A stretch of 64,000 bases of DNA from a virus (Duplodnaviria > Caudoviricetes), in IMG/VR virus record IMGVR_UViG_3300037422_000298; one strand, written 5' to 3'. This document shows positions 34,619 through 41,237 of this stretch, piece after piece. The position numbers were made by a program, and so were the translations under genes. Within the stretch, counting starts at the first letter, position 1. Each line of letters starts with the position of its first letter. The notes below the pieces were generated by a model, which searched no databases, was not told where the DNA came from, and worked only from the letters and a program-made list of their open reading frames with translations.

Positions 34619-37368
34619 ATGTCTCTAACGAACGCCTATACGGTTCTCTACGATTCTGCTGACGTCGAGACCGGTACCGCCGCCAATCCGTTGCGCGTCG
34701 ATCCGACTGGCACCACACCGCAACCAGTGACGGGTACCGTGACGGCAAACCAGGGTACGGCCGCCGCGGTCGCGAGTGCATGGCCGATCCTCGTTACGGA
34801 TGGTACTGACACTGCCGAGGTCACCAACGCAGCGCCGGGTGCCGGTGCGTTCGGCCTCGTGGTTCGTGTTGCGGGTTCGGTTTCGACGACGTTCACGCAA
34901 CCAACGACAGGAACGATCACAGCAGTCAACGTTGCGGTCGCGACCACGACGATCCTCGCGGCGAACGCGAGCCGCCTGGGCGCGATCTTGTACAACAACG
35001 ACGGTACGACGTACGTTGCGCTGGCAGCGGGCGCGACGAGCGCCAACTTTACGGTGCGCTTGACGGCGAACTCGTACTACGAAGTGCCGTTTCCGGCGTA
35101 CACAGGCATCATCACGGGCTCGGCTAGTGCGGGCACCAATACGGTGTACGCGACCGAGCTGACGTAAGATACGGCACGCGTGCCGGTCGATCTCAACGAA
35201 GAACACGTACTCCTCTACGACTCCAACGGAGTCGAGATGGCCGTGCAAAACGGCATTGCGATCCCAGTCGACACGCGGGCCTACCTACTGGCAGGACGCG
35301 ATAGCAGCAACGTCGCCCGTGTCCTCGCGACAGACTCAAGCGGCAATCTCGCGATCTCACCAGGCACAACGTATTCGTCGTTTTGGGTTGTGTACGATCG
35401 GATCGCGCCCGCCGCGAACAAGTACATGGCGACGCTCTTCAACACGAGCGCCACGCGCAAGGTCGTTGTTCAGAACATCTGGCAGTACAACTGGCAGTTC
35501 ACAGGTGTCGCTGACAACTTGCTCGAACAGGAGTTGTGGAAGATCTCTGCGCGAACGGCCGGTACCTCGATTACACCGCGTGCTGAAGACACAAATGACG
35601 TGCTCTCGGCAGGGATCACTGCGGATACAAACTCTTCGGCAGTCACGCAGGTCAACTTGATCATGCGTATCATCACTGGCAGCGCCGAGGCGTCTATCGC
35701 TGGCGGTGAAGCTGGACTCAAGATCATGCGTACGACCGAAGCCCTGGCGCTGCTCTACTCACGCAAGGATGCTACGCGAGGGTGGACGCTGCGTCAGAAC
35801 CAAGGTATCGCCGTTCGCAACATCACCAACATCACCGTCGGCACGTGCAGCTACGTGATTGAGTTCACCGACGAGGCTGCGTAGATGCCACTTGTAACGT
35901 TCAACGCCATCGGCTACACGACGACCGTCGGTACGACGTTCACACCGATCGTAGCGACGACGTACGTCGAACAAGCGGTCAACGCACAGCGATCGATCGT
36001 TTCGTCCAGCCCCGTTGACTTCTCAGCAGGTACCGGCGCGCGAACGCTGCGGCTTACCTACTTCGATCAGACAATGGCAGGACCGTTCACGGAAGATGTC
36101 GTGCTCAACGGTACGACACCCGTCAATACAACGAACGTGAACATTTGCTTCATCGAGAGCATGGTGATTCTGACTGTCGGTGCGCAACTCGGCAACGTTG
36201 GTACGATCTCCCTCAAGGCTGCTGCAGCGGGTGCAGGTGTCACTGTCGGATCGATCGCGCCCGGTGACAATCGCACGCAGTGGGCACACCACTACATCGG
36301 TCTGAACCGTGTTGCGTCGATCACCAACGTGATCGGACTGATCAAAGGTTTGGCGGCCGGAGAAGTCCACATGCGGGCTGCAACACCGACGGTCGCCAAT
36401 ACGCCCGAGCAGACCATTGCGCCTATCTTAACGCTCGCCCCAGGTGTGCAAGGTGATCTGACGTTTCCATCACCCATCGTCGTGTTCGGTCCGACGCGCG
36501 TGGTGCTCTACGCGAAGAGCGTACTCAGTGCAAATCAAGATTGGTTTGCATCCTTCGGATACGGTGAAGGCTGATGTCGATCACAGATCGTCCTGTCGTC
36601 AATGCTGTCGGTTTTGCGGAGGGGGCGCTGATCGCAGCGGGCAAGAGCACGGGCGCAGCAGGTCTTGTTGCAGCGTATACTTCCGCTGCGCTTGCGCCGA
36701 TCACAGTTGTTCGCGCGACGGCTTACACCGAACGAACAACAGCTGCACAGCTCGAAGTGCTATCTAGTGACGCTAACGACGATGGTGCACCTGCTGGTAC
36801 AGGCGCACGCACGCTACGCATCACGTACTACGACGGTAACTGTCTCGGGCCGTTCACGACTGATGTCGTGATGAACGGAACCGCGGCGGTTGCAACAACA
36901 GCCACGAACATTCGATTCGTCGAGGGTATGCACGTTCTCACCGTCGGTAGCAACGGCACCAACGTTGGGACGATCACGTTACGCGCGCTCGGCGGCGGTG
37001 CCGTCGTCGGAACAATCGCAGCGAGCGACGGGCGCACGTACTGGGGACATCACTATGTCGCGACGGGGCGCATCAGTCAGATCATCGAGCTGACTGCCGC
37101 GATGACACTTGCGAAGGGTTCCATATTCCTACGTCAGATCGATGTCCTGACGGTGGATGCTTTCGAGCGCCAAATTACAGCATCGTTGCGTCTCGGAGCG
37201 GCTGCAGCAGGTGCTGCTGCGACGCCATCGCCGTTTCAGCCTTCGCTGGTCTTCCCGTTTGGGAGTCTGTATGTTCCCGGTCCAGCTCGGGTGACCACAT
37301 ACGTTGATCCGGATGCAGCCGTCGCGAACAACGTCGCGCACGCGAGTTTTAGTTACCTCGATGTTTAA
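34619..37368 (+). CDS. Spike/vertex-type structural operon (34619-35167, 35180-35884, 35885-36574, 36574-37368); the last two are paralogs
   Basis: Thr/Ala/Val-rich; shared GTGARTLR.TY.D...GPFT.DVV.NGT...NVGTI...HHY. Confidence 0.7.
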
Positions 37369-38320
37369 AAAACTCTGGCATCTACTCGTGGGGAAACCAA
37401 TGGCCGTCAATCCGCTCACCAATCGTCCCGTCCCGCCCAACAGCAACCTCGCTCGCGCGATGTTCGTGTGGGTCACCGCGAGCGCGTCGCAAGACCCGCT
37501 CGACAACGACACCGATCAGCAGGCGCTGATCAATTTCCTCGACGACACCAACGTCGGCTGCAATGTCATCTTCCTCGACATCTGGCAGTATCTCGGCGGC
37601 TCGAACTGGACGAACGCGAAGCGCGACAAGATGCGGCAGTTCATCGACCGCGCGAAGCGTTCGGGCTGTAAGGTCTACGCGCTCTGTGGCAACGTCGACT
37701 GGGCAGTCAACCAGAATTGGGTGACGAAGAACATTCTCAACCCGATCATGGCATTCAACTCGATGTGCCAGGACGTTTCGGGACGGTTCGACGGCATCTG
37801 CTACGACGTCGAGTACTGGACCGACGAGAACACGTACCCGCCGTCGACTAACCTGCCAGGCTTCTGCGACCTCGTGAAGGCGACAAAGCAGATGACCAAC
37901 CTCGAAGTCGGCTGCTTCGCGGCGTTCTATCTCAAGGACAGCACCGGCACGCGTCCCAGTGTCAGCTACAACGGCAAGAGTGCACAGGACGGCGAGCACA
38001 TGATGGACGTCTGCGACTTCGTCGTCGTCGGCGCGTATCGAGATCACGCCGAAGACGGTGGCTCCGAGAGTGGCCCTGGCCAGATCTCGCTGTTCCAGCC
38101 CTGGTACGACTATGCGAGTGCACAGGGTCGCAACTTCGGGCTCTACTGCGGCTCGGAGACGATCGACGTCTCGCCGTCCTACGTGACGTACTACGGCGCG
38201 TCGAAGGCCACGATGGAAGCGCAGCACACGATCATCTCGGACACGTTCCGTGTAGCTGGCAACGCAACGTTCCTCGGCCAAGCCGTCCATAGCTACGACG
38301 GCTGGAAGGTCATGACCTAG
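37361..38320 (+). CDS. Putative TIM-barrel glycoside-hydrolase-like protein
   Basis: VIFLD, KVYALCG, RFDGICYDVEYW, DFVVVGAYRD. Confidence 0.55.
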   Translation: MFKKLWHLLVGKPMAVNPLTNRPVPPNSNLARAMFVWVTASASQDPLDNDTDQQALINFLDDTNVGCNVIFLDIWQYLGGSNWTNAKRDKMRQFIDRAKRSGCKVYALCGNVDWAVNQNWVTKNILNPIMAFNSMCQDVSGRFDGICYDVEYWTDENTYPPSTNLPGFCDLVKATKQMTNLEVGCFAAFYLKDSTGTRPSVSYNGKSAQDGEHMMDVCDFVVVGAYRDHAEDGGSESGPGQISLFQPWYDYASAQGRNFGLYCGSETIDVSPSYVTYYGASKATMEAQHTIISDTFRVAGNATFLGQAVHSYDGWKVMT

Positions 38321-38412
38321 ACCTTGATCTCGATCTCGCGTAGCTCGCACGTGCCGACGACGTCTTGCTTGTCGATCTTGACGGTCAGCGTGTTCTCGTC
38401 GAGCGACTTGAA
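38317..38412 (-). pseudogene. Displaced original 3' end (31 codons + TAG) of the vWA gene
   Basis: FKSLDENTLTVKIDKQDVVGTCELREIEIKV*, 24/31 identical to the current C-terminus at 38892-38987. Confidence 0.9.
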
Positions 38413-38413
38413 T

Positions 38414-38914
38414 TTAGTAAGGCTTGTACTGGCCTGCCTTGATACGGTTGATCGTGCTGCGTCCAACGCCGTATTTCTTAGCAAGCGCTACAGCGCTACA
38501 GGACCGCGCGAGTTTGGTATACCGGTCACTGCGTTTCAGTGCTGCACGAATGCGTGAAACCTCGCGTGCCGAAAACACGCGTTCGGAACGCGTCCTCGCG
38601 AATGCTTCACGAATGTTGTCGCGCGACGTCCCTGCTGAAAGATGCTTCGGGTTCACGCAGCGTTTGTTGTCGCACGAGTGCTTGATCAGCTTACCGTGCG
38701 GTACGGAAATGCCGCCGTTCTGTAGTCGCCACGCGTAAACATGTGCAGGCATGACTCGACCGTTGACGCTGAACATGCCGTACCGATCGCGCTTGGTGGC
38801 CGTAACACGGCGAACGTTGTGCCATGTCCAACAACCACGTGACTTCTCCACGTGCGCGTAGAAGCGCGCCTGTACGGCCGCTGTGAGCAAGCTAGATCTT
38901 GATTTCGACTTCAC
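38414..38914 (-). mobile_element. Free-standing HNH homing endonuclease (HNH_3-like)
   Basis: CWTW...YG...AHVYAW...HSCDNKRCVNPKHL..GT..DN. Confidence 0.9.
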
Positions 38915-41237
38915 GGAGTTCTGTTACTCCGACCACTTCTTGTCCGTCGATCTTCACCGTTAACGTGTTTTCGTCGAGAGAAGAAAACTCCTTGAACCAG
39001 ACTTGCCCCACCAGAATGCCGAACTTGATCTGCGCGGCTTGGTAGATCAGGCCGCGCGTCTTCGCGATCTGCGCCTGCGTCTGTCCGGTCAGCCACTTCT
39101 CGTGGAGGTTCTTCGGGTTCTTCTTGACGAACTCGTCGACCTCTTCGATCGCGTTCGACATGAACGTGTCGCACGGGTTGAGCTTCTTACCACCCTTGAT
39201 CTTCTCCTTCACGGCCTTGACCGAATCGAGCTTGCTGCAGCCCTTGATCTTGATGTCCAGCTCCTTGCCCATGATGAAGTCCTTCGACTCGGCTTGGACG
39301 GACTTCGGCGAGAAGCCATTGTCGGTGAGGCCCTGCTCCTTCAGCCACGCCGCGCCGTCGTCACCATACTTCGAGGCGAAGTTCGCATGACGAACGCCGG
39401 GGAACAGTTCTTCCTGGTAGGCCTTGTAGACCTTCTGTGCGCCGCGCGCCTTGAGCAGCGACCACTCCAGCTCGATGACGTCCTTCGCGTTGACGGCCTT
39501 CACCATGTTGCGATTGATGATCGGCAACGGCTTGACGTTGATGACCGTATGGACGTGGCCCTTTTGCATGCCGACGTGTCCTGCGCCGCTGGTCGAGACG
39601 CCAGCAGCAACGAGCGCGTCGTACGTCGCCTGCGAGACCTGAACCGGCAGTTTCTCGACGTTCACGAGACCGTGCGCGACGATCGAGTAGTTCCGCCAGA
39701 TGTGCGTCTGGAACTCGGTCGGGATGCCCTTGAACTTCTTGTGCTCGGGGCGCGACGACAAGTCGACCTTGCCCGTCTTGCGGACGCGAACGCTGATGTT
39801 CGGGCTGCATTCGTTGAACACGAGCCCCGAGACCTCGTAGCCGTTCGGTGCTTCGTCGGCGGCGAACTTGAGTGCGTCGCGCTTCGCGGCGAGGATCGTG
39901 TCCAACTCGCCTTGCAGCTCCTTGAGCCGCTTCGCCGACTTCTCGCCCGCCATCTGGTTACGGATGACTTCGACTTGCAGCGCCTCGTCGGCGGTCAGGT
40001 TCTCGTCGGCGTCGACACGCTTGCGACCGATGCGCGAGTACTTGAAGTCGGGATGATCGAGTAGAAGCCGCGTGCTGTCGTCATCTGCCAACGTGCGCAG
40101 CAGATCGAGCACCGTGAAGGCGTCGTCGGCCGGGACCTTGTTCGGGTCGTAGCCTTCGGTGCAGCGGAGCTTTGGATCGAAGGCCGCATGCTTGGCGGCG
40201 TCCATGAACTCGCTGTACTTTTGTTTGCCGAAACAGACACTGAACGCGTTGATGAAGCGAACGTCACCGAGCGCCTTCAGCACGGGGTAGACGACGTCGG
40301 GTTTCATGCGAACCGCGAACAGTGACATCGCTGCGTAGGCGGCAGCAGCGGCTGGTGTCGCGTCGTCGCCGAACACACCGCGGCGGCTCTGCGAGCTGAT
40401 CGGCGGGACTGCATCGCCGACGCTGGTCGGCGACAGATAGAAGATCTCCGTCGTGTTCTCGGGTACGAGCGCTTTGCTCGTGCTGGCGTCGTACGTCGTG
40501 ATCTCGCCGTCGGCGAGTGCGAATGCGAAGCCGCCGATCGGGTCGCCACCGACGTCGACTTCAATGCGCTTGCCGCCCATCGGGCGCTTCTGCATCGCGG
40601 CTTCGAACGTGACTTCGTACTTGTCGAATGCGTCGGCGTGGATGTGGACGCCGCCTGCCTTCTCGGCCATCGCCGCGAGCAGTGGTCGATCGGCGTAGTA
40701 GCCGTACTCGACGAACGTCGAGGATGCGAGCACGCCCGCGGTCTTCTCGACGACCTTGAGGATGTCTGCGCGGTTCCATTGATTGTCGCAGCCGTCGGAC
40801 ATGAAGAACAACGCGAACGGGTTCTTGTTCTTCTTGCTGACGCGGCCGACGAGCTTCTCGACTTCGGCGAGCGGTTCCTTGAAACCCGTCAGGCCGATCG
40901 GTTTGAGCCACCGATCGATCGCTTTGTTGACGTCGGCGAGATCGGCGAGCGTGGCGACGGGCTCGGCTTCGAGTAGCGCACCGAACTCGCCGCGACCGCT
41001 GAACCAGACCATCGACAGCGTGTCGCCGTCGCGCAGTAGCTTCGGCAGCTTCTTCTTGAGCTGCTCGCGGATGCGCGGCAGGTCACTGGTCATGCTGCCC
41101 GAGCAGTCGATCACAGCGATGTGGTTCGTTGACGTCTCGACGGGCTTTGCCGGTGCAGACTTCGCGACTGTCTGGTGAACGAGATAGAGGTTCTTGGTGA
41201 TGTTGTGCGAAACAGCGTCGATCTTGCTCTTGCTCAT
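38892..41237 (-). CDS. vWA (MIDAS) domain protein, 781 aa
   Basis: IAVIDCSGSM, WFSGRGEFG, FFMSDGCDN. Confidence 0.85.
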   Translation of the reverse strand: MSKSKIDAVSHNITKNLYLVHQTVAKSAPAKPVETSTNHIAVIDCSGSMTSDLPRIREQLKKKLPKLLRDGDTLSMVWFSGRGEFGALLEAEPVATLADLADVNKAIDRWLKPIGLTGFKEPLAEVEKLVGRVSKKNKNPFALFFMSDGCDNQWNRADILKVVEKTAGVLASSTFVEYGYYADRPLLAAMAEKAGGVHIHADAFDKYEVTFEAAMQKRPMGGKRIEVDVGGDPIGGFAFALADGEITTYDASTSKALVPENTTEIFYLSPTSVGDAVPPISSQSRRGVFGDDATPAAAAAYAAMSLFAVRMKPDVVYPVLKALGDVRFINAFSVCFGKQKYSEFMDAAKHAAFDPKLRCTEGYDPNKVPADDAFTVLDLLRTLADDDSTRLLLDHPDFKYSRIGRKRVDADENLTADEALQVEVIRNQMAGEKSAKRLKELQGELDTILAAKRDALKFAADEAPNGYEVSGLVFNECSPNISVRVRKTGKVDLSSRPEHKKFKGIPTEFQTHIWRNYSIVAHGLVNVEKLPVQVSQATYDALVAAGVSTSGAGHVGMQKGHVHTVINVKPLPIINRNMVKAVNAKDVIELEWSLLKARGAQKVYKAYQEELFPGVRHANFASKYGDDGAAWLKEQGLTDNGFSPKSVQAESKDFIMGKELDIKIKGCSKLDSVKAVKEKIKGGKKLNPCDTFMSNAIEEVDEFVKKNPKNLHEKWLTGQTQAQIAKTRGLIYQAAQIKFGILVGQVWFKEFSSLDENTLTVKIDGQEVVGVTELREVEIKI

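Follow-up and report, generated by a model that had tools for sequence, protein, structure and literature searches.

A replaced gene end beside a free-standing HNH endonuclease gene in a large uncultured virus, very probably left by intron-less homing

The replacement of a gene end by a mobile nuclease is a principle already established in fungal mitochondria and in yeast. Fungal mitochondrial mobile endonuclease open reading frames (mORFs) make "gene hybrids", as in atp6 of Allomyces macrogynus and in atp6, atp9, cox2 and nad3 of Glomus sp. (PMC3630166), and C-terminal duplications of atp6 and cob have been described in Endoconidiophora resinifera (PMC6279837). In the Glomus hybrids the native C-terminus is 91-98% identical to that of the sister species, compared with 64-81% for the inserted one (PMC3630166). 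The WHO elements found at the yeast FBA1 gene (Coughlan et al. 2020, eLife) consist of a nuclease gene and, upstream of it, a resistance-conferring 3' end of the target gene (PMC7282813). The old 3' end is pushed downstream, where it is a proposed homology arm, the cleavage site lies at the fragment boundary, and for WHO6 both resistant and sensitive alleles have been demonstrated (PMC7282813). In phages, intron-less homing is known from free-standing endonucleases such as the Seg and Mob proteins of T4 (PMC2988022), but the word "duplication" is absent from that review, which describes no replaced gene end. Barth et al. 2023 do not describe the replacement of a gene end by a homing endonuclease either, and our literature searches found no phage description of it. 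Here we analyse such a gene end in a 64,000-nucleotide stretch of DNA from a virus of the Caudoviricetes (IMG/VR record IMGVR_UViG_3300037422_000298; hereafter the window), where a gene of the vWA type is followed directly by an HNH endonuclease gene. We consider it highly probable that homing has carried a mobile cassette into the vWA gene at its 3' end, the cassette combining a foreign version of the last ∼41 vWA codons with the free-standing gene of an HNH homing endonuclease.

The vWA-type gene (38892..41237, minus strand) encodes 781 amino acids, matches phrog_2426 over its full length and is now a hybrid of a native body and a foreign tail. Its last 31 codons and TAG stop codon (38892..38987, minus strand) occur a second time beyond the free-standing HNH open reading frame (ORF), which is identified by Pfam HNH_3 and PHROG matches and extends at most over 38414..38914 of the same strand (166 amino acids). 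This second copy (38317..38412, minus strand), 31 codons and TAG detached from the gene, is referred to below as the orphan. The TAA stop codon of the HNH ORF occupies 38414-38416 and the orphan begins one base further on, the single spacer base (38413, minus strand), read directly from the sequence, forming the right-hand junction of the insert; by sequence comparison, homology to native tails begins at 38412. On its other side the orphan's stop overlaps the stop of a convergent neighboring ORF (37304..38320, plus strand), taken from the ORF list, which, by synteny with the HNH-less relative L003, shows where the vWA gene ended ancestrally. The two tail copies share 67 of 96 bases with the stop codon and 64 of 93 without it, and 24 of 31 residues, the differing codons being 13 synonymous and 7 non-synonymous. 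The resemblance is beyond chance (tblastn E 2e-12 between the tails; blastp E 1e-11 in an all-against-all search of the window's stop-to-stop ORFs), and in this self-comparison the vWA tail is the sole gene-end duplication beside a nuclease gene in the window. An earlier note, made from the letters of this DNA, had described two copies of the last 31 vWA codons flanking the HNH ORF, one base past the HNH stop and 24/31 identical in peptide; we reproduced all of its coordinates and counts, and the codons TTT, TCT, TTA, GGA, GTA and ACA that it singled out as atypical are present in the in-frame copy. The order of parts (gene body, foreign in-frame C-terminus, endonuclease ORF, displaced native C*-terminus) is that of the mORF hybrids, although the HNH gene here is a separate ORF, unlike those mORFs that are fused in phase.

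On sequence grounds the downstream orphan is the original tail, and four independent lines agree on this: composition, DNA identity, position and a close sibling. The fraction of G and C at third codon positions (GC3) is 0.53 in the in-frame copy (0.52 without the stop), compared with 0.84 for the whole vWA gene and 0.94 for the orphan, which bears out the C/G-ending codons reported for the latter. When the gene is scanned in sliding windows of 32 codons, the last window is the minimum, the rest having a mean GC3 of 0.85 (standard deviation 0.067) and never falling below 0.72. At the level of DNA, the orphan matches the HNH-less IMG/VR loci L001 and L002 at 80/93 and 76/93 bases, respectively, whereas the in-frame copy matches them at 60/93 and 62/93 (60-65/93, or 65-70%, when L003 is included). 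In the 300 bases lying upstream of the duplication, identity to L001 and L002 is 81-86%, on a par with the orphan. The native copy is closer to relatives in Glomus as well, and the corresponding values here (82-86% versus 65-67%) are joined by complete peptide identity, 31/31, between the orphan and the tail of a sibling. The DNA past the orphan stop stays in register with the DNA past the vWA stop of L003, in which that stop directly adjoins the end of the equivalent of the convergent ORF. HNH-less relatives had been predicted to end in the orphan type of tail and not in an A/T-rich one, and this is what we found: the orphan peptide matches the tails of L001 and L002 at 27/31 and 24/31 residues and that of the sibling protein P0129 at 31/31, and the tails of the HNH-less relatives use GC-rich codons (GC3 0.84-0.94).

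The sibling also indicates how far the foreign DNA reaches. P0129 has the same length as the window protein and is 95.5% identical to it, with 35 differences in 781 residues; the final 41 residues hold 10 of these and the stretch 695-740 holds none (Fisher p=3.7e-6). Because the differences pile up in this way, the foreign tract reaches back to codon 741 (39017) or beyond, exceeding the duplicated part by at least 10 codons on its upstream side, and the atypical codons ATT and CAA likewise appear from 39017. The minimal foreign tract, which we call the A-type tail, thus comprises the last 41 codons and the stop (38892..39017, minus strand). An extended tract of this kind would look like the co-conversion tract expected of homologous repair.

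The peptide type of the in-frame tail (F-S-S...G-Q-E-x-V-G-V...) is that of the tails of P0015 and P0022, which it matches at 26/31 residues, or at 34/41 over the extended tract, and the tail of the HNH-less L003, written in GC-rich codons, is also close to it. All of the relatives that are closest in the gene body (77-79% identity) bear the orphan, or B-type, tail. In a second pair of siblings, P0015 with an A-type and P0127 with a B-type tail, 14 of the 40 differences in 783 residues lie in the last 41 (p=1e-9). P0015 and P0022 themselves are 88.9% identical in the body and 41/41 identical in the tail, which argues that the tail has a horizontal history of its own. The pattern in P0015, P0022 and P0127 resembles the chimeric host-gene history of the WHO elements, in which the tail tree of FBA1 disagrees with the body tree. 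Hence, the description of the in-frame copy as a "recoded replacement C-terminus" stands in part: a replacement it is, but a foreign allele accounts for it better than recoding, its peptide type being normal in P0015, P0022 and L003. The A/T-ending codons of the in-frame tail may reflect the composition of a low-GC donor or selection for immunity at the cut site.

These comparisons bear on a simpler scheme, in which the gene's 3' end was first duplicated in tandem, the HNH gene entered between the two copies and the upstream one then diverged in place. Such a history would equally leave two copies flanking an HNH ORF, and it could draw on the small margin by which the in-frame copy's match to the tails of other lineages (26/31 with P0015) exceeds its match to the orphan (24/31). 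It would, however, require the expressed copy to have changed at 29 of 93 bases, with GC3 falling from ∼0.9 to 0.52, while the orphan stayed 31/31 identical to the sibling, which is implausible in equal time. A duplication in place also leaves unexplained why the foreign tract reaches upstream of the duplicated part, why tails of this type are also present in other lineages, and why identical tails sit on bodies that are 89% identical. We regard this scheme as highly unlikely.

A search with the orphan-containing ORF returned P0130, P0131 and P0132 (the last a cluster member), stand-alone ORFs of 37 amino acids whose product is a B-type tail. The longest contig of P0130 measures 32,920 nucleotides, the same size as that of P0022, and the longest contig of P0132 measures 65,659 nucleotides, the same as those of P0015 and of P0002, an HNH protein 67% identical to that of the window. 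The matching contig sizes strongly suggest that the three-part layout of A-tailed vWA gene, HNH gene and orphan exists in at least two more lineages. Among loci of IMG/VR and of metagenome-assembled genomes (MAGs) in GTDB, the HNH gene is absent after the vWA gene in L001-L003 and in ∼40 further related loci, and no second tail copy or orphan was found in the ∼40 related loci; the cassette is rare among the loci examined.

In another scheme the cassette would be ancestral to the virus group, and the HNH-less relatives would have shed it by recombination between the tail copies. The family is indeed old, the HNH variants being 67% identical and so comparable to the backbone divergence of 77-79%, and direct repeats can mediate deletion. 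The repeats are, however, merely 69% identical, and the tails of the siblings are B-type over all 41 residues and not the A/B chimeras expected from loss. An old orphan under no selection should moreover decay, yet this one is intact, has native codon usage and equals the sibling's tail in peptide. L003, where the vWA stop directly adjoins the neighboring gene, and the lack of a second tail copy in the ∼40 related loci likewise argue for gain. We therefore judge an ancestral cassette to be very unlikely, and favor homing into a gene that had previously ended in the orphan tail.

In a 52%-identical relative (L008:6287-6380), the vWA stop is followed ∼20 codons later, in the same frame, by a sequence that nearly repeats the final ∼9 tail codons (E-M-K-E-V/I-Q-V-K). 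This sequence may be the eroded orphan of an older replacement.

The HNH ORF matches Pfam HNH_3 (PF13392) at 33.5 bits (E 3e-8), above the cutoff of 24.8 bits, and also PHROG families of endonucleases and HNH proteins, with E-values as low as 1e-23; a C-terminal match to HTH_3 is weak (18.2 bits, under the cutoff of 23). The residues of the catalytic block H-x-C-D-N..C-x-N-P-x-H (H79, C81, D82, N83, C86, N88, P89 and H91) are invariant in six homologs, and the GC3 of the ORF is 0.635. In the structure model, which has a predicted local distance difference test score (pLDDT) of 76, residues 116-159 are helical. A Foldseek search with this model gave I-PpoI (E 0.08) and Smad MH1 as its best rows and I-HmuI at rank 27, all weak and none with E<=0.001, and a sequence search of the PDB with the HNH protein gave no match. 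The nearest relatives, P0002-P0004, are 64-67% identical, and in IMG/VR, scanned with both P0002 and the HNH of the window, no match exceeded 37-39%. The homologs begin at a conserved R-F-F/Y-A-H-V block, which is omitted from the public gene call (P0001, 120 amino acids, with an internal ATG start). Because the conserved N-terminus extends upstream of that ATG, translation probably starts at TTG 38890, two bases past the vWA stop, or at GTG 38914, which overlaps the vWA tail by 23 bases. A motif scan found no sigma-70-like promoter and no intrinsic terminator around the cassette, so the HNH gene is probably read from the vWA transcript, a co-transcription that we assume here and that would perhaps be accompanied by coupled translation. 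A distant HNH homolog (∼30% identity, E 3e-11) lies at L003:1111-1638, ∼2.4 kb upstream of the vWA gene of that relative, which has no HNH gene after its vWA gene; this virus group therefore hosts HNH genes at other sites too.

Many phage HNH genes reside in group I introns, and the orphan has an intact reading frame that ends in a stop of its own, both of which would be expected if the insert were a self-splicing intron or an intein-like element, with the mature product joined to the orphan tail and the in-frame copy incidental. We rejected the intron hypothesis because the Rfam scan, which covered introns of groups I and II, found no family at E<=1 on either strand of 37800-39600 and because the hybrid gene is complete, reaching the end of the PHROG profile and stopping in frame. 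A homologous in-frame tail would also be pointless in an intron, and the HNH gene is a separate ORF in a different frame, the vWA gene stopping before or at its start. An explanation by splicing is thus extremely unlikely. An artifact, namely a chimera of two strains made during metagenome assembly, deserves mention because the window derives from a 241-kb assembled metagenomic contig. The copies are, however, 69% identical and not near-identical strain variants, and the A-tailed vWA protein, a 406-residue fragment of it and the HNH protein recur on separate JGI and Logan contigs (vWA and HNH each on 2-3), with analogous orphan ORFs in other assemblies, so that a chimera is hardly credible.

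Homing by replacement of the gene end could have proceeded as follows. In a mixed infection, the HNH enzyme would cut or nick the native, sensitive tail of a cassette-free virus, and the break would be repaired from the cassette-bearing genome, copying the spare tail and the HNH gene. The body of the vWA gene would serve as the left homology arm, and the orphan tail with the downstream DNA would probably serve as the right one. The recipient would emerge with a hybrid gene, consisting of its own body and a foreign tail that the enzyme should no longer recognize, followed by the HNH gene and by the old tail, which would lie downstream, untranslated. In later rounds, the stranded tail and the neighboring gene could act as the right homology arm. 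The cut site is probably near the 5' edge of the orphan, at about the codon 750/751 boundary. The new and native tails differ at 6 of the first 24 bases after this boundary and at 29 of 93 overall, a divergence that would plausibly abolish the recognition site while making repeat-mediated deletion less likely.

The earlier note's interpretation, a footprint of intron-less homing that preserved the gene, is supported by the anatomy of the locus, the native or foreign status of the two copies, the presence or absence of the cassette among close relatives and the tail swap that recurs in other lineages, all of which are observed. Several points weigh against it. The cutting, its target site and the immunity of the new tail are all things that we infer. 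The cassette variants are old (HNH proteins 67% identical, tails 34/41). The co-location of P0015, P0002 and P0132, and of P0022 and P0130, is read from identical sizes of the longest contigs, and the right junction of the window's insert differs from that of P0130-type orphans. P0129, known as a protein only, is taken to be without the HNH gene because the tail that it has in frame is the native one. Solved His-Me nucleases resemble the structure model only weakly (best E 0.08). Finally, a close HNH relative or a further orphan was absent from IMG/VR, the GTDB loci and the matches listed in a JGI metagenome scan, the last being a search with a generic CDN..CVN pattern in which a known 65%-identical JGI homolog was missed among the matches listed.

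Compared with the described systems, the element works like the mORF and WHO elements but is not a homologous member of either group, because its nuclease belongs to a different family, HNH_3. This is a His-Me finger enzyme, in contrast to the LAGLIDADG or GIY-YIG nucleases of the mORFs, and the host is a bacterial virus and not an organelle. The WHO nucleases are intein-derived LAGLIDADG-zinc finger proteins that act in meiosis and build clusters of old fragments, whereas the window has a single HNH gene and a single orphan, and the sensitive and resistant states that were demonstrated for WHO6 are presumed here. With the T4 Seg and Mob systems the locus shares a free-standing endonuclease gene (here HNH) beside a conserved viral gene, varying in presence and absence between relatives, and the same expected mode of spread, double-strand-break repair with co-conversion of flanking markers. 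It differs from the reviewed T4 cases, which are either intergenic or divide a gene into two functional parts, as in Aeh1 nrdA and T4 gene 60 (PMC2988022).

The gene that received the cassette belongs to a wider phage family. The 781-residue ORF matches phrog_2426 end to end (1e-175, positions 15-736 of the 736 in the profile), and a motif of the metal ion-dependent adhesion site (MIDAS) type, D-x-S-G-S at residues 44-48, is invariant in 27 relatives. Relatives of the protein bear precomputed matches to PF13768, PF00092 and PF13519; Pfam applied to the window protein itself gave no match at E<=0.01. A search of phage GenBank proteins found only ∼34%-identical homologs, some annotated as vWA, in Ackermannviridae and other phages, and a DNA search of phage GenBank with the locus found no match. 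The paired genes seen under some of the GenBank homologs were considered as split vWA genes and rejected, being small upstream ORFs. At ∼34% identity, the PHROG 2426 family ties the uncultured group of this virus (IMG/VR contigs of 91-448 kb) to the Ackermannviridae and others. A 529-kb viral contig carries a vWA homolog of 47% identity (L149:3810-4497) with ∼580 extra bases between the equivalents of residues 274 and 309, the variable region of the vWA family; these bases may represent an insert or an expanded linker. The MAG labels of the GTDB contigs related to the vWA locus are taxonomically scattered, so that no host can be read from binning. Elsewhere in the window, two adjacent plus-strand ORFs of 229 and 264 amino acids at 35885-37368 form a paralogous pair (E 7e-30, with 42% identity over 188 residues), of which the first has a sub-threshold match to the C-terminal domain of the K1 capsule lyase.

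The locus cleanly exemplifies a selfish element whose kind is known, in a setting, that of a phage, where little has been described, and it introduces no new principle. It illustrates how a selfish nuclease can, with neither intron nor intein, invade the coding sequence of a conserved viral gene and leave that gene undamaged. The tail and the body of the resulting gene then differ in ancestry, which is relevant to phage phylogenies, to pangenome clustering and to gene calling, as seen here in the HNH protein shortened to 120 amino acids and in the short orphan ORFs called as proteins. The 95.5%-identical sibling, whose tail equals the orphan, offers natural before and after alleles and thereby a defined pair of presumed sensitive and resistant targets, useful for studying a new HNH specificity. 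More broadly, terminus-replacement homing, whose unit would join a nuclease gene standing on its own to a spare gene end, with the stranded old end as recombination arm, could be an autonomous and recurrent class of mobile element in bacterial viruses, its HNH version circulating among at least three lineages of one group of large uncultured viruses, and the A/T-shifted synonymous codons of the spare end may owe their presence to selection, for escape from the nuclease and against loss through the repeats, and not to a low-GC donor, a set of proposals to which, taken jointly, we give an even chance.

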